A DNA stretch of 64,000 bases from Gammaproteobacteria bacterium (GCA_027006175.1 JALTKS010000038.1:24080-88079), one strand, 5' to 3'. Counted from the first letter of the stretch, positions 23,549 to 59,239 are shown. Notes: generated by a model from the letters alone, not told the origin. Numbers and translations are program-made.

Positions 23549-25012
23549 ATGAAATTAAATACCATCATGCGCTACGGCATACTGTTTTTTCTCATCCTGC
23601 TAAGCGGCTGTGCAGCAAACCCTGTCACGGGCGAATCTGATTTTGTCCTTATGTCAGAAGATGAGGAAATCGCCATTGGCCGTCAAAACCACGCTAAAAT
23701 TATTCAGCGTTATGGTTTATACGATAATCCAACGCTACAGGAATACGTGCAAACCGTTGGCAATAAACTCGCTATAAAAAGTCACCGAAGCAATCTTGTT
23801 TTTCGTTTTACCGTTCTCGACAGTAATGAAATTAATGCCTTTGCTTTACCCGGTGGTTACATCTATATCACTCGAGGCTTACTTGCCTATCTTTCCAACG
23901 AGGCAGAACTCGCGGCTGTTTTAGGCCATGAGATTGGTCATGTCACTGCTCGACACGCTGTGCGGCAACAAAGTGCGGCGGCGGCAACCGGTTTCTTTGC
24001 GGCAATACTTGCTTCACAAGCCGACTTTTATGGTGCTGGAAATTTACTCAACACCATTGGGGTCGCACTCATCCGTGGTTATGGGCGTGATAATGAACTG
24101 GAGTCCGATCGTCTTGGCGCCGAATATTTAGCGAAAAGTGGCTATGATCCACTGGCGATGATGGAAGTCATTCGGGTACTTAAAAATCAGGAAATATATG
24201 ACAAACAATTAGCCAAAAAAGAAGATCGTGAACCCAATGCTTATCATGGTGTCTTTGCGACGCATCCAGACAACGACAAACGCTTGCAGGAAGTCATTGG
24301 CCGCGCCAAACAATTACAATCCAATCCATCCACCAATCATCATCAAGTTGCCTTCTTACGAAACATTGAAGGACTTGTCTTTGGTGAAGGTGAAAAACAA
24401 GGCATTGTGCGTGGTAATAAATTTTACCATCGTGAATTAAATATTAAATTAGAACTGCCTCTCAGCTGGCGCATCGAAAACCAACCTAATCGCATTGTTG
24501 CGATTGCGCCTGAAAACAAAGGTTTATTGCAAATTACAGCGGTTGATATCAATAAACGTATTAGCCCTATGCAATTTCTCAAACAACGCCTTAAACTCAG
24601 TCAGTTGCAAAATGGCGAATATTTCAAGAGCCATCAGCTTGAAGGCTATACCGCCATTTCATCCGTGTCGCGCACAGTCTATGGAACGCGTCTGGTCCGT
24701 TTTGTGGTGATTTATAAAAACAATACTGCCTGGATATTTCAAGGGCTTGCCAAAGACGAAAATCAACCCTATCAATTTGATGATGCCATTCTCAACACCG
24801 CCAGAAGTTTTCGTACGCTCACCGCAGCAGAACGCAACAAAGCAAAACCTCGGCGCATACATATCATCACAGCAAGCAAAACAACCCGCTTTGATGTGCT
24901 TGCCCGTGAATCACAACTTGGAGCTAATGCCGAAGCGCAACTTCGATTACTCAATAAACGTTACCCTGATGGCGATCCCATTCCCGGCACCGCATTAAAA
25001 ATCATTCAGTAA
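23549..25012 (+). CDS. M48-family Zn metallopeptidase lipoprotein with extra C-terminal domain
   Basis: 487 aa with a lipobox (LILLSGC) and HEIGHVTARH plus a downstream NELESD glutamate. About 230 aa of C-terminal sequence is of unknown type. Confidence 0.85.
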   Translation: MKLNTIMRYGILFFLILLSGCAANPVTGESDFVLMSEDEEIAIGRQNHAKIIQRYGLYDNPTLQEYVQTVGNKLAIKSHRSNLVFRFTVLDSNEINAFALPGGYIYITRGLLAYLSNEAELAAVLGHEIGHVTARHAVRQQSAAAATGFFAAILASQADFYGAGNLLNTIGVALIRGYGRDNELESDRLGAEYLAKSGYDPLAMMEVIRVLKNQEIYDKQLAKKEDREPNAYHGVFATHPDNDKRLQEVIGRAKQLQSNPSTNHHQVAFLRNIEGLVFGEGEKQGIVRGNKFYHRELNIKLELPLSWRIENQPNRIVAIAPENKGLLQITAVDINKRISPMQFLKQRLKLSQLQNGEYFKSHQLEGYTAISSVSRTVYGTRLVRFVVIYKNNTAWIFQGLAKDENQPYQFDDAILNTARSFRTLTAAERNKAKPRRIHIITASKTTRFDVLARESQLGANAEAQLRLLNKRYPDGDPIPGTALKIIQ

Positions 25013-51624: not shown

Positions 51625-52224
51625 TTAATCTCGATGTAAATGAAGTCGCTCATGCAAGGGGCTGCTACGAGGAAAATGCGCCAAAAGAAATTCCATTTGA
51701 TCTGCCAATACACGCTTACTCTGTAAATAGACATACTCCGCATGAGTGGGTATAAAAGGCACTGCTAGCAAGGCTATACCTGCCTGTTCTGGTGTTCTAC
51801 CTGCTTTATGGTTATTACAACGTTTACATGCAGTTACTACATTGTTCCAGCTATCCGCACCTGATTGGCTCAACGGGGTAACATGATCACGCGATAAATC
51901 CCGATCCAGAAAATGCGAACCGCAATACATACACAAATGTGCATCACGCTTAAAAAGTGCTTTATTATTTAATGGCGGGCTATAGTACTTTCTTGCTTTT
52001 GATGCAGCACAACTGCCGTGTGTTGCAACAATAGAATTAACATTAATAACGCTACGTTGACCGCTATGCGCATTAACGCCACCGCGCACTCGATAGAGTA
52101 AAGAGCCACAACTATAAGCAACCTGCTCTAAATGATATAAGCGAACCGCATCCTGATAATTAATCCATTCCAGTGGCATACCCGCAGCATCTGTTCTTAG
52201 TATCTGTTGAGTAAAACCAGTCAC
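51625..52224 (-). CDS. HNH endonuclease-domain protein
   Basis: 199 aa with a GTG start 6 nt after AAGGAG. The HNH/Zn motif is CMYCGSHF...DHVTPLSQSGADSWNNVVTACKRCNNHK. The stop lies 8 nt before the fructosamine kinase start. Confidence 0.85.
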   Translation of the reverse strand: MTGFTQQILRTDAAGMPLEWINYQDAVRLYHLEQVAYSCGSLLYRVRGGVNAHSGQRSVINVNSIVATHGSCAASKARKYYSPPLNNKALFKRDAHLCMYCGSHFLDRDLSRDHVTPLSQSGADSWNNVVTACKRCNNHKAGRTPEQAGIALLAVPFIPTHAEYVYLQSKRVLADQMEFLLAHFPRSSPLHERLHLHRD

Positions 52225-52293
52225 ATCTAACTCCTTCTTTCATGCGTAAGGCTAAGCTACCCTGATTATATTCATATAATCAAGCAAGCGGCC

Positions 52294-52324
52294 AAAAAAA
52301 ACGGGGTACCAAAGTGGTACCCCG
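52294..52324 (-). terminator. Orphan intrinsic terminator with no annotated upstream ORF on its strand
   Basis: The minus-strand RNA reads CGGGGUACC-ACUUU-GGUACCCCG followed by U8. The stem is 52302-52310 / 52316-52324 and the run on the plus strand is A8 at 52294-52301. It lies about 70 nt upstream of the HNH start, and no ORF of 60 aa or more lies upstream on the minus strand before 52600. Confidence 0.7.
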
Positions 52325-52599
52325 AAAACATCTCTAAGGAGGAGAAACTACAATTTGCAGACACTACGTCCATTCACCATTTGGCTTACTAAACAATGAT
52401 GCAATGCCCATGCCAAGCTGAAATAACCGATTATCAATCACTTAGCATCAATGATAAACCTTGTTTTCGTCATTTTATTGACCAATTACGTCAGTGATAT
52501 GACGCACTGGGGCCATGCTTATGTTTATTTACTTGAAGAGTCTGCTATAACCTCTATGCTTTACTAGATATTTTAGTATCAAGTCCTGGACGACACGGC

Positions 52600-53727
52600 A
52601 TGCCCGATGACACCGAAGTAGAGAATGAAGAAATAGCCCACTTACTGGTGGTGGATGACTCACGTCTGATGCGCCGCGCTATCGGTAAAATTCTTGGTAA
52701 AGAATACCGCATTACCGAAGCGGCTGATGGAGAAGAAGCATGGAGTACGCTTCAAGAAATTGATGATATTCGAGTTATTTTTTCCGACCTTTCCATGCCT
52801 AATTTAGACGGTTTTGGTTTACTTGATCGTATACGCCAAAGTGATGATCCTGCTATCAATGAATTACCCGTGATCATTATTACTGGCGCGGAGGATGATG
52901 ACGAAACCAAACACAAAGCACTGCAAAATGGTGCCTCTGATTTTATTAGCAAACCTTTTGAATCAGTACAATTACGAACCCGTGCTAAAACACACGTTCA
53001 ACTCAATCAAACTCATAAGAAACTAACTGAAACCACATCTGAGCTTGAAAAGCAGGCAACAACCGATAGGCTAACAGGACTTAGTAATAAAAAATATTTT
53101 GATAGCCGTATTGTTAAAGATCTCTCTTATGCAAAACGACATCGCGGCGAACTGACCTTGGTACTATTAGAAATTAATGAATTCCATCGATTATTCCTGA
53201 AACGGGGTAAAGAAGTCGCTGATGACATTCTGAAACGTGTTGCCAATATCAGTTGTGCGGAAACCCGTAACGAGGATACGCTGGCACGTATTGGTTTAGC
53301 TAAACTTGCTTTTATTTTACCTTCTGCAAACAGGGTTGGTGCCAAGAAACTCGCGGATCGCGTTTCTGAACAACTCAATGAATTAGACGTTAATTTTAAT
53401 ATCGGTATTGCAGCGACAGACATTAACAATACAACATCTACCGATGACATTATCAACCTGGCGGAAGATCACTTACAGACTGCCATTAGCCAGCCAGGCA
53501 ACAGTATTGTTATAGATGAAATAGTAACCAAGTTAACGCCTTTAAATAGCCTGCCAGATATCGATACAGCAATACGATTATCCGGCAGCGCTGAAGCTGA
53601 ACGTTTACAACCTTATCTCGCGGTATTATTAAATAAGCTACTGCCTTTACTCAAACTATGCAATAAAAAGCTTGGTTTAGATATTGACGATGCCATTTCT
53701 AAAATTGAAAAACGGCTGAAAAAATAA
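52600..53727 (+). CDS. Response-regulator receiver fused to a degenerate GGDEF domain (A-site GLAKL, I-site RNED retained)
   Basis: 375 aa with an intact REC domain (LLVVDDS, IFSDLSMP, IIITG, SKPF). The GGDEF fold shows DRLTGLSNKKYF, LLEINEF in place of LLDIDHF, and RNEDTLARIGLAKLAFILP aligned to RxxDxxxRxGG(D/E)EFxxxLP. Confidence 0.85.
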   Translation: MPDDTEVENEEIAHLLVVDDSRLMRRAIGKILGKEYRITEAADGEEAWSTLQEIDDIRVIFSDLSMPNLDGFGLLDRIRQSDDPAINELPVIIITGAEDDDETKHKALQNGASDFISKPFESVQLRTRAKTHVQLNQTHKKLTETTSELEKQATTDRLTGLSNKKYFDSRIVKDLSYAKRHRGELTLVLLEINEFHRLFLKRGKEVADDILKRVANISCAETRNEDTLARIGLAKLAFILPSANRVGAKKLADRVSEQLNELDVNFNIGIAATDINNTTSTDDIINLAEDHLQTAISQPGNSIVIDEIVTKLTPLNSLPDIDTAIRLSGSAEAERLQPYLAVLLNKLLPLLKLCNKKLGLDIDDAISKIEKRLKK

Positions 53728-53735
53728 CCATTATA

Positions 53736-55412
53736 TTACTTACCGCGCTGTATTTCTGAATATTGCAAGGCCAATCTGGCCTGGTTTACAAATTGAATAA
53801 AACCTTTTTGCAATTCATCATTTACCTGTATTCCAGACGTGCCCATGTCAGCATAAAAAAGTCCGACAATTCTATCTCCCGCCCTTAGCGCTGCAATTGA
53901 AAAAGAACTTACCTTAACTTGTGAAACAAACTCTTTTGGCACCAGGTTTTTCCAATCCGGTGAATTTACATCATTCACCAATAACTCATTACCTTCGCGT
54001 AGAATTTTAATAAATAAATTTCTGTTATCTCTTACCTGTAAATCAAAATATTTTTTCAGATTATCCTGATTCTCACCTACACCTAATCGTACTTGTAATC
54101 TGGAATGGTCTGCATTCAACAAACACAATACTGCTCGATTAAAGTGCAATCCTTTATGAATCCCTTCCAGAACTTTTGCAAACACATGATGCACACCGGC
54201 AGACGAGCTAATTAAACCTGTTATATCCTGCAATATAGAAAGCTGGACCTGTAAATCAGCGCTTTTAATCAGCTTTTGCTTTGGTTTTTTTATAACCGAT
54301 TTAGCAGCAGCAATCTTTTTTGATACAGAACTGTCTTTTTTATTCTTTGCTGCGCTATCTGGTTTTTTATCTTTATTCAGTTGTTCTTCATCAAGATGTT
54401 CATCATCTGTAGTAGATCGCGTTCCTGCATAAAACGATAACTGTCTGGACATCTTGTTCAATAATGCATCGCTGGTTTCATGCACTGGTGGCATTAATAG
54501 CTTCATGTCAATACCGTAATCACTGGCCAGGTCGCAGCTATTACGAAAATTTTGTTGCATGCACTCTTCAATATCACTACGACTAATACCGACAGCATTG
54601 GCCATATCCTGATAAATTTCACCTAAACTGCTTTCTTGTCTGTTTTGTTTCCCAAAAAGCACTTCCAAACTTGAATTTGATAAGGATGATAATGCTTTAT
54701 TTATTTCGATAGGGTCCGTTAAGTTTTTGCTTGAGTTAGAACGATAATTTTGCATTGTTTTTATAACGTTATTTGAAAACCCCCACTGCTCACCCAACTT
54801 TTGGCCAACGGTGTAAAATGATAAACCTAATTGCTGCTGTTGCACCTTACTCCAACTTATATGGTTTTTTTCATCCATCAACAACATCTGCTTATACTTT
54901 TCAGGTAAGGCATAAGCAACAATAATTTCACCCAAACCATGCAGTAATCCACAGATATAACTTTGTTCAATATCTTTAACCCCTGCTTTTTCTGCAACTT
55001 CGCGTGCCATGCCTGCATTCAAGAATGCATTAACCAACATGCTATTCATATCAAAGCCATCATCACCGGTATTGAAACTTTCAATTAACTTCAACGTTAA
55101 GCAAAGACTTCTTATTGTTTCAAAACCCAGCAATATCACTGCACGAGAAATGATTGTAATCTTGCCTAAGCCTCGGTTATAAACACTTGAGTTCGCTAAC
55201 TGTAATAACTTCGTTGTGAGATTAGCGTCCTTCATCACCTCCACTGCCAATGACATAGCATCACTATCGCTATCACTGCTGATATGGCGTACTTTATTTA
55301 AAGTCGCACTAAAGATCGGTAAATCACCCAAATGAGATAATCGTTGTTCAATTTTTTTCAGTGTTTCAGCACCGTCAACTTCAGCTGTCTTGTGTTTCTT
55401 TTTCGCTGTCAT
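53736..55412 (-). CDS. HDOD domain - Lys-rich linker - GAF domain protein
   Basis: 558 aa with an N-terminal HDOD (LGDLPIFSATLNKV...DANLTTKLLQLANSSVY...ISRAVILLGFETIRSL). A basic low-complexity linker follows, then a C-terminal GAF-like domain (ILQDITGLISSS...NRAVLCLLNADHSRLQVRLGVG...IVGLFYAD). Confidence 0.8.
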   Translation of the reverse strand: MTAKKKHKTAEVDGAETLKKIEQRLSHLGDLPIFSATLNKVRHISSDSDSDAMSLAVEVMKDANLTTKLLQLANSSVYNRGLGKITIISRAVILLGFETIRSLCLTLKLIESFNTGDDGFDMNSMLVNAFLNAGMAREVAEKAGVKDIEQSYICGLLHGLGEIIVAYALPEKYKQMLLMDEKNHISWSKVQQQQLGLSFYTVGQKLGEQWGFSNNVIKTMQNYRSNSSKNLTDPIEINKALSSLSNSSLEVLFGKQNRQESSLGEIYQDMANAVGISRSDIEECMQQNFRNSCDLASDYGIDMKLLMPPVHETSDALLNKMSRQLSFYAGTRSTTDDEHLDEEQLNKDKKPDSAAKNKKDSSVSKKIAAAKSVIKKPKQKLIKSADLQVQLSILQDITGLISSSAGVHHVFAKVLEGIHKGLHFNRAVLCLLNADHSRLQVRLGVGENQDNLKKYFDLQVRDNRNLFIKILREGNELLVNDVNSPDWKNLVPKEFVSQVKVSSFSIAALRAGDRIVGLFYADMGTSGIQVNDELQKGFIQFVNQARLALQYSEIQRGK

Positions 55413-55513: not shown

Positions 55514-57403
55514 ATGCTTACTCATAGCAAACAAAAGTCATCTCAACGTATCTCAATAATGGCACTAACTGCCATTGTCATCGCTTTTATTGAGTTCTTT
55601 TTCGTTGATCTCATGCTTGGCATGGAGTCTCGACTCAGTGATCGCTTTGTGCTCTCTCAAGCCAGCAACCTCCGTACTGACCCGGATATCGTGATTATCG
55701 ATATTGATGAGTACAGCCTCGATAGTATTGGCAGAAAAGAAGGTTATGGACGCTATCCCTGGCCACGTGAATTACACGGCAAATTGCTTCAGGAAATTAT
55801 CAAGCAAAAACCTAAGGCAATTATTTACGATATCTTGTTCTCTGATCAAGACAATCAAGCTAAACACAACGATGAAACAAAGACCGCCAGCGATGACGCT
55901 TTTGGCAAGGTCATTCAGCAAACAAATAATATTTATTTTCCCATTTTAAGACTACCCGCCGAAAATGATTCTGAAAGCCAGATTATTCTGGGTAAATTTG
56001 GTTCTGCTCTGGGGTTTACTGCAACCGAGAAGGCTGATCCGATGGCGCGTATTTCATTACAATTACCCGGCATTCCTGCCGCCATTGATACGGGGCGTTT
56101 GGGTAACGTGCAATATATTGAAGATCCCGATGGGGTGGGTCGCCGCTACTTACTTTATACCGAAGCCTATGGCTGGCGTATCCCCTCCTTGCCGGCACGA
56201 CTTGCACGCGATCTTAATTACCCTATTCCCGATCAAGAAAGTATTCGCTTGCATTGGCGAGGTAAAAAATCTTCTTTTCATCATATTTCTTTTTATGATC
56301 TCTATGATGATTTTTTTAATCATCAAAAACCCCAGCGTAGTGCCAACGAACTTGAGGACAAAATAATTATCATTGGCGCATCCGCACCCTCATTGGGTGA
56401 CCGTCGCACAACCCCACTGGACAGCCTTTATCCAGGTGTTGAAATGTTGGCAACTGCTATTTCAAATTTAAAAAATAATCGCTACATGCAGGAACCGGAT
56501 CCGGTTTTTCCAGCCATTATGTCTCTGGTTATTATCCTCAGCCTGCTTTACGCGGTGCTCCATATAAGAAACTCATTTCGTATCTTTATCGGCTATCTGG
56601 CATTTACGATTATCTCACTTGGCATTAGTTATTTTGCTGTTGCCTCACTCCTCATTATTCCTTTGCTACGACCTTTATTATTTGGCTGGCTGTTTTACAC
56701 CTTTGCAGCGCTTTATGACTATCTTGAAGAAAAACAAACTCGAGAACGTTCCATGCGAATGTTCAGCCGTTTTGTCGACCCACGTGTCGTCAGTGATTTA
56801 GTCAGTGAAGGTGAAGAAGGACTCAATAAATATTTTAATGCACAGAGAATCCAATGTACGGTTCTCTTTTCTGATATCCGCGGTTTTACCACCATGTCGC
56901 AACATCGTGAGCCAGAAGAAATTGTTTCGCTGTTAAACCAGTACTTTTCACGTCAAACCAATGTTATTTTCCAGCACGGCGGTACCATAGATAAATTTAT
57001 TGGTGATGCCATTATGGCATTCTGGGGTGCGCCAATTACTGATCCCAACCATGCTCAACATGCAGTTGAGGCGGCTCTCGATATGGTTGAAGCCTTAACA
57101 TTATTCAAACAATCACTGGGCGGCGAACTCGGTGAAAGCTTTGATATTGGCATTGGGATTCATAGTGGCGAAGCCGTGGTGGGCATGATTGGCTCTGAAA
57201 CAAAACTCGATTACACCTGTATTGGGGATACCGTTAATACTGCCAGTCGGCTTGAAGGGCAAACCAAAGGCAGAGCCAGAATTCTTGTTTCCGCGGCGAC
57301 AAAAGCACTTTGTAATGATAGTATTAACTTTAGAGACCATGGTGCAGTCTCAGTGAAAGGCCGCGATGAATCGGTAAAAATATTTGAACCGCAACGAAAA
57401 TAA
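55514..57403 (+). CDS. CHASE2 sensor - class III adenylate cyclase
   Basis: 629 aa with an N-terminal TM helix and a periplasmic CHASE2 domain (DIVIIDIDEYSL...YPWPRELHGKLLQEI...AIIYDILFSDQD). Three TM helices follow, then the cyclase domain (VLFSDIRGFTTMS...GGTIDKFIGDAIMAFWGAP...GIHSGEAVVGMIG...DYTCIGDTVNTASRLE). A Lys/Thr specificity pair suggests ATP as substrate. Confidence 0.88.
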   Translation: MLTHSKQKSSQRISIMALTAIVIAFIEFFFVDLMLGMESRLSDRFVLSQASNLRTDPDIVIIDIDEYSLDSIGRKEGYGRYPWPRELHGKLLQEIIKQKPKAIIYDILFSDQDNQAKHNDETKTASDDAFGKVIQQTNNIYFPILRLPAENDSESQIILGKFGSALGFTATEKADPMARISLQLPGIPAAIDTGRLGNVQYIEDPDGVGRRYLLYTEAYGWRIPSLPARLARDLNYPIPDQESIRLHWRGKKSSFHHISFYDLYDDFFNHQKPQRSANELEDKIIIIGASAPSLGDRRTTPLDSLYPGVEMLATAISNLKNNRYMQEPDPVFPAIMSLVIILSLLYAVLHIRNSFRIFIGYLAFTIISLGISYFAVASLLIIPLLRPLLFGWLFYTFAALYDYLEEKQTRERSMRMFSRFVDPRVVSDLVSEGEEGLNKYFNAQRIQCTVLFSDIRGFTTMSQHREPEEIVSLLNQYFSRQTNVIFQHGGTIDKFIGDAIMAFWGAPITDPNHAQHAVEAALDMVEALTLFKQSLGGELGESFDIGIGIHSGEAVVGMIGSETKLDYTCIGDTVNTASRLEGQTKGRARILVSAATKALCNDSINFRDHGAVSVKGRDESVKIFEPQRK

Positions 57404-57427
57404 TATTTCGCATCACAGGAGGTGGTT

Positions 57428-57988
57428 GTGAAACAACTATTCTACTTTGCCCTGATTCTTTTCATATCAAGTACTAACGCCCTTGCTGCGGATAAAATCG
57501 GTGTTATTTCACGCGATGCCAATCTCTACGCAAAACCTTTTAAAGATGCCGATACCATTGCAGAATTGCCTGCAACAACGCCTATTATCATTCTTAAACG
57601 CAAAGGTGGCTGGTACGAAATCAAAGCCGCGGAAAAACAGGGTTGGGTAAGGCTCACTCGTGTTCGCCTCAACCGACAATCTGGTGCAACAAAAGAATCC
57701 ACTAGTGGCGTTGGCGAGTTACTCTCCGGTCTTGCTACCGGTCGTGGAAAATCCAGCCAGGACACAACAGCCACCGCAGTAAAAGGACTTAGCGAAGAAG
57801 AATTGCGTAATGCCGAACCTGATCTCGATGCACTTAACGCGCTCGATAATTACGCGATCAACGATGATGCCGGTGATAACTCCGGCTTACAAACCCGACA
57901 AATTGATTACCAACCGGGCACCGCAGCCAAATCTGACGACACAGCAACACCAGCTAAAAAAACCAGTTATGAGGAGGATGAAGAATGA
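57428..57988 (+). CDS. Secreted SH3b-domain protein with acidic disordered tail
   Basis: It has a signal peptide (…ISSTNALA/AD) and an SH3_3-like core (ANLYAKPFKDADTIAELPATTPIIILKRKGGWYEIKAAEKQGWVRLTRVRL). I prefer the GTG at 57428, which is 5 nt after AGGAGG at 57417-57422. The ORF track starts at 57422. It begins 24 nt after the cyclase stop. Confidence 0.7.
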   Translation: MKQLFYFALILFISSTNALAADKIGVISRDANLYAKPFKDADTIAELPATTPIIILKRKGGWYEIKAAEKQGWVRLTRVRLNRQSGATKESTSGVGELLSGLATGRGKSSQDTTATAVKGLSEEELRNAEPDLDALNALDNYAINDDAGDNSGLQTRQIDYQPGTAAKSDDTATPAKKTSYEEDEE

Positions 57989-58884
57989 TTGCACCTCTGC
58001 AAACACTCTCACTTCCTGCCCTCCTGCTGATGCTTAGCTTTTCAGCGCATGCCTTTGACTTTGGCAGTGTTCTTGGTGGCGGCGATGACTCTGGCGGCGG
58101 CTCGAACGTCTTCGACATTGGTGAAATGATCAGTGGTGTAAAAGACATCTCCCGTACTATTACCGGCATTGACGAGGAAGATGAAATCGAAATCGGTCGT
58201 GATGCCGCAGCCGTACTACTCGGTGCCTCAAAACCTGTTAATGATCCTGAACTACAGCGCTATGTAAACCGAATTGGTCGCTGGGTCGTTAACCAAACCG
58301 ACCGCGCTCACTTGCCCTGGCGTTTTGCTGTACTTCGCTCAAATGCAGTCAATGCTTTCGCAACACCTGGTGGTAATATCTTCATTACCGATGGTCTTCT
58401 CGACCTGCTTACAAGTGAAGCCGAACTTGCCGCGGTGATTTCTCACGAAGTGGCGCATGTGATTCAAAAACACCATATCAAGGCCATGTCGAGTCTCAAC
58501 ACCAGTGGGCTGTCAGGTGTTATTAAACTCGCTAGCGCGACCAGAGAAGGTCGCAGTAATCAAATGACCACCCAGTTAGTCGGCGAAGTAAAAGACATGT
58601 ATCTACGCGGCCTCGATAAAGGTGATGAGTTTGAAGCAGATAGCATGGGAACAGTGATCGCGAGCAGAGCCGGTTATGACCCGTTTGCACTCATGGCGGT
58701 ACTACAAACACTTGATAGCATCGATCCCGAAAACTCAGGGCTTGCACTACTCTACAAAACCCACCCTCCCGCCTCCGATCGCCTCGACAAACTCGAACCG
58801 GTGCTCGAGCAATTTGACGAACCCGCCGAAGAGTCACCCATGCTGCAAAAACGCTTTAATAAATACGTTGGCAAGCACTCGTGA
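57985..58884 (+). CDS. Periplasmic M48-family Zn metallopeptidase
   Basis: 299 aa with a signal peptide (…LSFSAHA/FD), HEVAHVIQKH, and a downstream GDEFEAD glutamate. Its ATG overlaps the SH3b gene stop (ATGA). Confidence 0.88.
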   Translation: MIAPLQTLSLPALLLMLSFSAHAFDFGSVLGGGDDSGGGSNVFDIGEMISGVKDISRTITGIDEEDEIEIGRDAAAVLLGASKPVNDPELQRYVNRIGRWVVNQTDRAHLPWRFAVLRSNAVNAFATPGGNIFITDGLLDLLTSEAELAAVISHEVAHVIQKHHIKAMSSLNTSGLSGVIKLASATREGRSNQMTTQLVGEVKDMYLRGLDKGDEFEADSMGTVIASRAGYDPFALMAVLQTLDSIDPENSGLALLYKTHPPASDRLDKLEPVLEQFDEPAEESPMLQKRFNKYVGKHS

Positions 58885-59104
58885 AACAATTTTAAGCTCC
58901 TCTTCCTCGCTGTTTATGCACAGCGCGTTAACAATCAATGAATTAGCGTCATAAAAATGTCACAAATTGTTACAAAACCCTATCGTTATAGTGAAACATA
59001 TTGATTTTATTAGCTATTATGGAAGTGTCGAAAAACTAACCAAACTAATAGAAGCCACTATTTTCACCGCAAAAAATGGCTATTTTATAATTTACTCCAC
59101 AGAC

Positions 59105-59127
59105 TTATCCACAGCTTTTGTGGACAA
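59105..59127. promoter_or_regulatory. Pair of inverted DnaA-box-like 9-mers upstream of priA
   Basis: TTATCCACA (59105-59113) is a perfect match to the E. coli consensus. TGTGGACAA (59119-59127) is the reverse complement of TTGTCCACA, one mismatch from TTWTNCACA. The two are separated by 5 nt and lie about 115 nt upstream of the priA ATG in an AT-rich spacer. Confidence 0.35.
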
Positions 59128-59239
59128 CTTTCATTCTTCTATTACGCTCAATGACTTAAAGAAATATCGCCTGATTTCACATTCAATTTTGCCCATTTTA
59201 GTGCGTGAAGCGTCTGATTCATCATGCTAGAGTGCGCCC

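Follow-up and report, generated by a model that had tools for sequence, protein, structure and literature searches.

CHASE2 is a widespread bacterial sensor domain for which almost no inputs are known, the sole worked-out case being a rhizobial one in which a protein is sensed via an outer-membrane partner. The CHASE2 cyclases of S. meliloti act with outer-membrane NsrA, and their cue is a protease-sensitive protein, ribosomal uL2 (PMC7529298, PMC13001267). The CyaD1 cyclase of that organism makes cyclic AMP (cAMP) constitutively when its CHASE2 domain is removed, the domain being autoinhibitory, and a FecR-domain protein, SMc02177, is discussed alongside the CyaD1 pathway (PMC5498481). Elsewhere, operons of CHASE2 kinases include a gene for a periplasmic LysM-FecR protein (PMC5192318), and in the cyanobacterial metacaspase-CHASE2 fusions the protease lies on the cytoplasmic side (PMC3501461). 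Here a three-gene locus is described from a Gammaproteobacteria bacterium (GCA_027006175.1 JALTKS010000038.1:24080-88079; this whole stretch of 64,000 nucleotides is referred to below as the window). Positions 55514-58884 (+) hold three head-to-tail open reading frames (ORFs), which encode a CHASE2 receptor with a cyclase domain, a secreted SH3b protein and a secreted M48 protease.

An envelope accessory protein for CHASE2 is a known idea; the trio itself appears to be undescribed. The initial annotation of the window had reported no awareness of such a module, and indeed the literature searched contained no paper joining CHASE2 with an M48, SH3 or periplasmic protease partner. Its accompanying statement that the whole family lacks a known CHASE2 ligand no longer holds in full, since the S. 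meliloti cyclases respond to the protein uL2.

Conservation of the trio was examined from two sides. The CHASE2-centred sample comprised the 80 closest relatives in a metagenome scan (34-70% identity) and covers the CHASE2 branch to which the window belongs; the M48-centred sample comprised 80 loci from a scan with an M48 alignment, one genome per species, with neighbouring genes typed by hidden Markov models (HMMs) of the window families. Both partners were present in 48 of the 50 CHASE2-centred loci that could be evaluated, each of these having at least 1.5 kb of downstream DNA. Viewed from the protease, the SH3b partner adjoined or was fused to M48 in 54/80 loci, and a CHASE2 gene was adjacent in approximately 40 of the approximately 50 evaluable loci (counting L025, L029, L033 and L038). 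Seventeen BepA-like M48 proteins of about 487 residues in the same sample were linked to neither SH3b nor CHASE2. Because of these comparative counts, the arrangement is far beyond chance, and the three genes, first grouped on their spacing in the window, are co-conserved across phyla and genomic contexts.

The trio was found in L001, L004-L015, L019-L026, L087-L098 and many other loci. According to the record titles, the M48-centred scan took in Burkholderiales, Nevskia, Gallionellaceae, Methylophilaceae, Thiobacillus, Xanthomonadales, Pseudomonadales, Zetaproteobacteria, Geobacter, Desulfuromonadaceae, Desulfobacteraceae, Nitrospirae, Nitrospinaceae, Acidobacteria, Kiritimatiellia and Tepidisphaeraceae. 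The pair or the trio ranges over at least eight phylum-level groups, reaching beyond Proteobacteria into Nitrospirae, Acidobacteria, Kiritimatiellia and Planctomycetes. M48 homologues with 46-61% identity to the window protein belong to such trios in unrelated surroundings, next to antiporter, sulphate-assimilation or PspA genes. Several of the 42 SH3b homologues found adjoin CHASE2 genes, and distant ones (30-40% identity) lie directly 3' of CHASE2 genes; in L002 the next gene overlaps the SH3b homologue, and its beginning shares 54% identity with the M48 of the window. A 4-nucleotide start/stop overlap is available at 66 of 97 CHASE2-SH3b junctions and at 64 of 107 SH3b-M48 junctions, with a 1-nucleotide overlap at 17 more of the latter. 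No fourth conserved gene was found among the neighbours, the largest neighbour cluster (16 of 124 loci) being lineage synteny.

The part of the receptor that accompanies the pair is the sensor. Among the 80 close CHASE2 relatives, 49 carry a cyclase output and 31 a conserved, cytoplasmic C-terminal domain of about 145 residues, with the pattern ...atLLL.irl...ksvE.l.G.QkGlW.LFe.t.avSW...WR.lFa..., which has no Pfam or NCBIfam match. Receptors of the latter type are some 565-585 residues long (L002 2408-4108, L020 4747-6456, L131 4791-6494 and about 30 other loci), and Xanthomonadales receptors have yet another, different C-terminus. The cyclase is thus dispensable to the module, as about 40% of the sampled related receptors carry another output. 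The gene order also varies, SH3b-M48-CHASE2 being seen in L025, L029, L036, L078 and L082. Since the partners are kept while outputs and gene orders change, the constant elements are the periplasmic ones, and the linkage of the module is to the sensor and not to the output. As side observations on gene number, L008 (746-3730) has two tandem SH3b-M48 pairs, and L033 (5653-14650) and L038 (5638-7687) each have two SH3b genes before a single M48 gene.

The SH3b protein of the window belongs to the SH3b families (PF08239/PF06347), with scores just over the cut-offs and a predicted β-barrel: residues 33-79 match SH3_3 (E 1.2e-6, 29.0 bits against a cut-off of 27) and SH3_4 (E 1.2e-5, 25.5 bits against 24.1). 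Its signal peptide, as read from the sequence, has an ALA|A site and no lipobox cysteine. Invariant residues among the homologues fall into two groups, one in the barrel (G61, W62, G72, W73, V74 and R75) and the other downstream of it (G105 and R106 of LATGR; G120, L121, E123, E124 and L126 of VKGLSEEEL). The latter region is centred on the motif G-[VI]-[RK]-G-L-x-E-E-x-L, which together with the helices after it is here named the RGL segment. Across phyla the best conserved feature of the protein is t-G-[VI]-R-G-L-x-E-E-x-L followed by an amphipathic helix, the conservation of which exceeds that of the SH3 core. The conserved, family-defining part of the protein is thus the RGL segment, which tracks the M48 protein rather than the cyclase. 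The protein had been described initially as an SH3b module with a long acidic disordered tail. This holds for residues ~143-186, which are acidic and of low complexity, whereas residues ~100-142 contain the invariant motifs; the acidic part is limited to close relatives, distant homologues either lacking it or differing there. The SH3b-RGL family has many members: when 1.84 billion cluster representatives were searched with a profile, 192 matched at E <= 1e-30 and as many as 1831 at E <= 1e-10, and most of the best 150 were full-length single matches of 160-230 residues. No Pfam match to FecR (PF04773) or LysM was found in the SH3b or the M48 partner.

The relationship between RGL and the protease is most evident in natural gene fusions. 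In Xanthomonadales and relatives, RGL and SH3 are fused N-terminally to M48; a search for such SH3b-RGL-M48 fusions returned 1332 matches, of which the best 120 were almost all of fusion length, and the fusions appear to be abundant in Xanthomonadales and Steroidobacteraceae. In Acidobacteria (Vicinamibacterales), RGL is instead fused to the C-terminus of M48 and SH3 is missing. An RGL-only HMM recognized two of these C-terminal fusions (E 5.6e-5 in L051 and 2.7e-4 in L053), and those of L059, L080 and L085 were recognized by eye. L074 has an RGL-like small secreted ORF, lacking SH3, between the receptor and the protease. The occurrence of two independent fusion topologies is strong evidence, as read from the gene sequences, that RGL and M48 would act together physically. 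A separate observation is that L033 has an additional fused SH3b-RGL-M48 gene beside a CHASE2 cyclase gene.

Structure prediction is consistent with such a partnership. The AlphaFold2 model of one natural fusion, P0163, had a mean predicted local distance difference test score (pLDDT) of 85.4 and a predicted template-modelling score (pTM) of 0.85, with the SH3 barrel, RGL and the protease all modelled confidently; pLDDT was 92-98 over the RGL motif and its helices, and residues 90-113 were disordered. In this model V113 and I116 of GVRGI and, on the protease, L235 of the 'ARPLW' loop that follows the first conserved M48 helix are β-bridge residues. When the window SH3b protein was modelled alone the barrel was again confident, whereas residues 85-186 had pLDDT values of 44-74 and the RGL segment values of 50-74. 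This contrast between RGL alone and RGL fused to M48 fits a segment that would fold upon binding the protease. Foldseek recognized only the M48 and SH3b parts of the fusion model, the latter matching SH3b domains found in cell-wall hydrolases and in NlpC/P60 peptidases, and no solved structural relative was found for the RGL half.

The protease of the window has a strong Pfam Peptidase_M48 match (E 8.2e-33, 114.2 bits against a cut-off of 20.3), and the earlier description of it as a soluble HExxH protease stands, given its HEVAH sequence at residues 154-158 and a signal peptide devoid of a lipobox. Because the HExxH motif, E215 and H260 are invariant in the family, the enzyme is predicted to be active and should be so in the window. 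Within the active site, E215 is likely to be the third zinc ligand, an assignment made from the motif and not from a residue-level comparison with BepA; the D-E-x-E-A-D motif itself aligns with 'neqEADriG' of BepA. When aligned with 6SAR (...LTHPLPESRL, last residue 253), H260 is paired with H246 of BepA, which is reported to be the zinc-blocking 'His-switch' residue of that protein.

The nearest solved relative of the protease is PDB 3C37, an uncharacterized M48 protein whose structure came from a structural-genomics centre (E 2e-31), followed by BepA (E 1e-22), and the closest named relative is a protein of 88% identity from a Gammaproteobacteria bacterium metagenome-assembled genome (MAG). 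Two named identities were considered and rejected. The BepA family model (NF052400) scored 109.6 bits against a cut-off of 570, with only profile positions 44-251 of 483 covered and no tetratricopeptide repeat (TPR) region, and the LoiP/YcaL model (NF052399) scored 44.9 bits against 365, the AHA|F signal peptide being without a cysteine. By sequence, the operon M48 is thus classed as a BepA-like catalytic domain that lacks the TPR arm and ends after the protease domain. The window has a second M48 gene, at 23549-25012 (+), whose 487-residue BepA-like product scores 138.8 bits with NF052400 (cut-off 570), and the operon M48 is therefore a distinct paralogue. Lipobox-like cysteines (LPAC, AACG and LVSC, read by eye) occur in the M48 orthologues P0085, P0129 and L058 6956-7831; the protease would be lipid-anchored in some lineages, whereas it is predicted to be soluble in the window.

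In the receptor, residues 23-346 match the Pfam CHASE2 family (PF05226) with E 8.7e-51 (173.4 bits against a cut-off of 26.3; profile positions 4-253 of 257), and an alignment of 14 module-linked receptors gave the CHASE2 invariants P82, W83, R85, D106, F109, D206 and R210. One hydrophobic segment precedes this domain and three follow it, and hydropathy therefore predicts a periplasmic CHASE2 domain and a cytoplasmic cyclase; the same one-before, three-after layout has been described for a CHASE2 protein (PMC3501461). Residues 447-620 match Guanylate_cyc (E 5.8e-32, 111.2 bits), and the closest solved relative of this domain is CyaB of P. aeruginosa (3R5G, E 1.2e-36), a proven adenylate cyclase. 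The motifs align residue for residue with those of CyaB and comprise FSDIRGFT (452, metal Asp), DKFIGD (493, Lys), DYTCIGD (566, Thr) and VNTASRLE (574, Asn/Arg), so that the Lys/Thr adenylate cyclase pair pointed out in the initial annotation is indeed present. The domain also keeps both metal-binding Asp residues. In the classification of Linder and Schultz, the replacement of Asp by Thr (the Lys/Thr pattern) marks a class IIIb adenylate cyclase. The receptor output is accordingly predicted to be a CyaB-type class IIIb adenylate cyclase specific for ATP.

At the level of DNA the three genes form a compact unit (Table 1). The ORF listing gives an SH3b start at GTG 57422; this start is disfavoured because the AGGAGG sequence and the N-termini of the homologues, which read M-K-Q-L-F-Y, fit the GTG at 57428. 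The latter is most likely the true start, which leaves a gap of 24 nucleotides after the cyclase gene. The ATG of the M48 gene overlaps the SH3b stop codon by 4 nucleotides (ATGA). All three ORFs, the gap and the overlap are as first annotated, and the view of the locus as a single packed unit is borne out by the tight junctions and by consensus promoter and terminator scans, which gave no convincing site inside the operon and nothing usefully placed above shuffled expectation. If the module is defined as a CHASE2 receptor gene adjacent on the same strand to genes for an RGL partner and a TPR-less M48 with an intact active site, the window carries one.

Table 1. Coordinates in the window of the three genes and of the features read or predicted within them.
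Feature	Coordinates	Strand	Basis and remarks
CHASE2 + class IIIb adenylate cyclase receptor (predicted)	55514..57403	+	629 residues; Pfam matches
First transmembrane segment, residues 11-39	55544..55630	+	Kyte-Doolittle 19-residue window, maximum 2.54
Periplasmic CHASE2 domain, residues ~40-327	55631..56494	+	Pfam; motifs GRYPWPR, FDILF, DxDGxxR, PGVE
Three transmembrane segments, residues 328-398	56495..56707	+	Hydropathy: 328-353, 357-377, 379-398
Cytoplasmic cyclase catalytic domain, residues 447-620	56852..57373	+	Pfam; motifs aligned to CyaB (3R5G)
Ribosome-binding site AGGAGG for SH3b gene	57416..57421	+	Sequence read; 6 nucleotides before GTG 57428
SH3b-RGL secreted protein	57428..57988	+	186 residues, GTG start; Pfam and homologues
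Signal peptide, residues 1-20/21, NALA|AD	57428..57490	+	Sequence read; modelled helix over residues 3-15
SH3b β-barrel, residues 22-81	57491..57670	+	AlphaFold2 pLDDT 86-94, strands 23-81
RGL segment: LATGR (102-106), VKGLSEEEL (118-126), two short helices (123-142)	57731..57853	+	Invariant residues
Acidic low-complexity tail, residues 143-186	57854..57985	+	Net charge -7; pLDDT ~40
Ribosome-binding site GAGGAGG for M48 gene, within the end of the SH3b gene	57971..57977	+	Sequence read; 7 nucleotides before ATG 57985
M48 zinc protease, secreted	57985..58884	+	299 residues, ATG start; Pfam
Signal peptide, residues 1-23, SAHA|FD	57985..58053	+	Hydrophobic segment 1-19, sequence read; no lipobox
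HEVAH zinc-binding/catalytic motif, residues 154-158	58444..58458	+	H154, E155 and H158 invariant (alignment A2)
E215 of D-E-x-E-A-D motif	58627..58629	+	D214, E215, E217, A218 and D219 invariant
H260 of THP motif	58762..58764	+	T259, H260 and P261 invariant; aligned with BepA H246

Between the M48 stop codon and priA lies an AT-rich gap of 355 nucleotides (58885-59239) with several promoter-like hexamer pairs and an 87-residue ORF (58967-59230) that is unlikely to be a gene. This gap, 3' of the operon, showed no terminator-like site, and an Rfam scan of the window gave no match. Upstream, at 51625-55412, are genes for an HNH endonuclease (-), a REC-GGDEF response regulator (+) and a divergent HDOD-GAF protein (-). 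These were rejected as module members, being syntenic only in close relatives (L001 and L006), and this second-messenger-rich neighbourhood is absent from distant carriers of the trio.

How the three proteins might work together can be proposed as follows. The reading that is favoured here, and that is given an even chance of being correct, is that RGL docks on the BepA-like protease and that the pair sets the state of CHASE2, and hence cAMP synthesis. The RGL segment, disordered alone, would fold onto the protease near the N-terminal helix/loop and the active-site sheet and would act as a regulatory pseudo-substrate or as a cleavable segment. The SH3b barrel would confer targeting, towards a cue that is a peptide, a protein or of cell-wall nature, and the CHASE2 domain would read the occupancy or the cleavage state of the protease-RGL pair. 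In the resting state CHASE2 would keep the cyclase off, cAMP rising when this inhibition is relieved. In this scheme we infer that RGL docks on M48 and that CHASE2 is contacted, as well as which way proteolysis runs and what the cue is. A more specific version, put forward tentatively, is that RGL would be a tethered pseudo-substrate passed between the M48 active site and CHASE2, such that engagement of the cue frees or cuts RGL and CHASE2 senses that event. Proteolytic signalling in the periplasm, which was the model first suggested for this locus, is in this light a plausible hypothesis.

Several points weigh against the favoured reading. Two close CHASE2 relatives, L154 and L160, have no SH3b-M48 pair; conversely, for about 8-10 SH3b-M48 pairs the surrounding 5-7 kb contain no CHASE2 gene, and so the pair can work without an adjacent CHASE2 receptor. 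Contact of CHASE2 with either partner is something that we infer, and contact between RGL and M48 is read from pLDDT, pTM and secondary structure in the model of a distant relative, P0163 being only ~30-35% identical to the window proteins. Moreover, the P0163 model was built from an alignment of 92 rows and that of the window SH3b protein from one of 19, and this difference in depth could explain part of the contrast in confidence. Finally, an RGL segment tethered in cis fits a pseudo-substrate or pro-segment and fits a diffusible, cleaved ligand less well.

The CHASE2-less pairs L017, L018, L028, L037, L043 and L079 have unrelated genes (SLT, sigma-70-like, EamA, MTHFR and DUF1097) as neighbours, and the receptor for such pairs, if any, may be encoded elsewhere. 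A separate observation concerns an ORF of about 2100 residues with TPR and CHAT (caspase-like) regions, which lies directly 5' of the SH3b-M48 pair in Geobacter sp. OR-1 (L046 2-6235); an ORF of about 2100 residues is also found 5' of the pair in a Desulfuromonadaceae MAG (L052 1-6327), its equivalence to that of L046 being assumed from size and position.

The constituents of the module can be put together in other ways. It is conceivable, if rather doubtful, that the SH3b-M48 pair is an adaptor-protease that trims an outside protein, peptide or cell-wall cue, the resulting fragment being the CHASE2 ligand and RGL a mere uncleaved docking handle. The periplasmic adaptor-protease design is an established one (NlpI-Prc, LbcA-CtpA), the M48 catalytic residues are all invariant, and the SH3 part of the fusion model resembles SH3b domains from hydrolases of the cell wall and from NlpC/P60 peptidases, which would suit capture of such a cue. 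The existence of pairs without CHASE2 implies that the pair has a function of its own, and the sole characterized CHASE2 cyclase pathway answers a protease-sensitive protein signal (PMC7529298). However, Acidobacteria keep RGL on a protease that has no SH3, so that capture by SH3 is not a universal step; RGL is more conserved than the SH3 core, beyond the need of a plain docking handle; and the module has no co-conserved gene that could encode a substrate.

Cleavage of the receptor itself is a less probable explanation, and an unlikely one. Here the M48 protease, targeted by SH3b-RGL, would cut CHASE2, either switching the cyclase on irreversibly, in the manner of protease-activated receptors, or serving the turnover or quality control of the receptor. 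Clipping would be an effective switch, given that CyaD1 without CHASE2 is constitutive (PMC5498481). CHASE2, RGL and M48 are also constant across differing outputs, and, to judge from the tight coupling of translation, the three proteins may be made in matched amounts. Such a role would nevertheless leave unexplained both the tethering of RGL to the protease in two fusion topologies and the SH3b-M48 pairs that lack a CHASE2 neighbour; irreversible activation by a co-expressed protease would need an extra gate; and no RGL-like conserved site was seen in CHASE2, though none was searched for. It is very improbable that there is no signalling link at all and that SH3b-M48, as a BepA paralogue without TPR, serves envelope housekeeping or quality control and merely shares the operon. 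BepA and LoiP, the closest named relatives, are quality-control proteases, some pairs lack CHASE2, and a separate BepA-like gene is present in the window; against this stand the adjacency kept in at least eight phylum-level groups through permutations of gene order and changes of output, the presence of the pair beside 48/50 close CHASE2 relatives, and the BepA-like M48 proteins of the same sample, which are never so linked.

The favoured reading, in which the docked RGL-protease pair sets the CHASE2 state, would, if true, mean that cAMP signalling is tied in many environmental bacteria to proteolysis in the periplasm. If RGL is a pseudo-substrate, this would be the first general input mechanism for a large CHASE2 branch, independent of output and extending from Proteobacteria to Acidobacteria and Planctomycetes. 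The combination of constant periplasmic parts with swapped cytoplasmic outputs indicates at which point the signal is generated or read, and the analysis supplies handles for mutation in E155 of HExxH, the VKGLSEEEL motif and H260. It also defines a TPR-less BepA-like branch that would work with an RGL partner in three architectures, namely as a separate protein, as an N-terminal fusion and as a C-terminal fusion.

Several known systems come close to the module. In the CpxA-CpxP-DegP system, the sensor has a periplasmic modulator that is titrated away and that a protease degrades, and NlpI-Prc and LbcA-CtpA are established periplasmic adaptor-protease pairs. The logic is alike in that a small exported modulator or adaptor is combined with a periplasmic protease and a membrane sensor; the folds, however, are unrelated, and in the present case the parts share one operon, fusions of the modulator segment with the protease occur, and the steps are proposed ones. 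BepA (YfgC) and 3C37 have the same catalytic domain (HExxH, D-E-x-E-A-D and the THP His), and BepA also resides in the periplasm; BepA carries a C-terminal TPR region, whereas the operon M48 does without it and is paired with SH3b-RGL and a CHASE2 receptor.

Among the CHASE2 systems, CyaD1, CyaD2 and CyaK of S. meliloti with NsrA (PMC7529298, PMC13001267, PMC5498481) likewise combine a CHASE2-class III cyclase, an inhibitory CHASE2 domain and an envelope accessory. The accessory there is an outer-membrane β-barrel, and the text consulted describes no SH3b or M48 partner, the comparison being one of published descriptions. The metacaspase-CHASE2 proteins (PMC3501461) also associate CHASE2 with a protease; there the protease is a cytoplasmic output on the same chain, whereas here it is a separate periplasmic partner on the input side. 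Finally, the operons of a CHASE2 kinase and a LysM-FecR protein (Burkholderia 'BiofilmReg' and the P. aeruginosa PA4035 type; PMC5192318) likewise encode an exported accessory with a signal peptide and a module for binding peptidoglycan or protein. In the present module, by contrast, the partner is SH3b plus RGL, the output is a cyclase or the unassigned C-terminal domain rather than a kinase, and a protease is the obligate third member.

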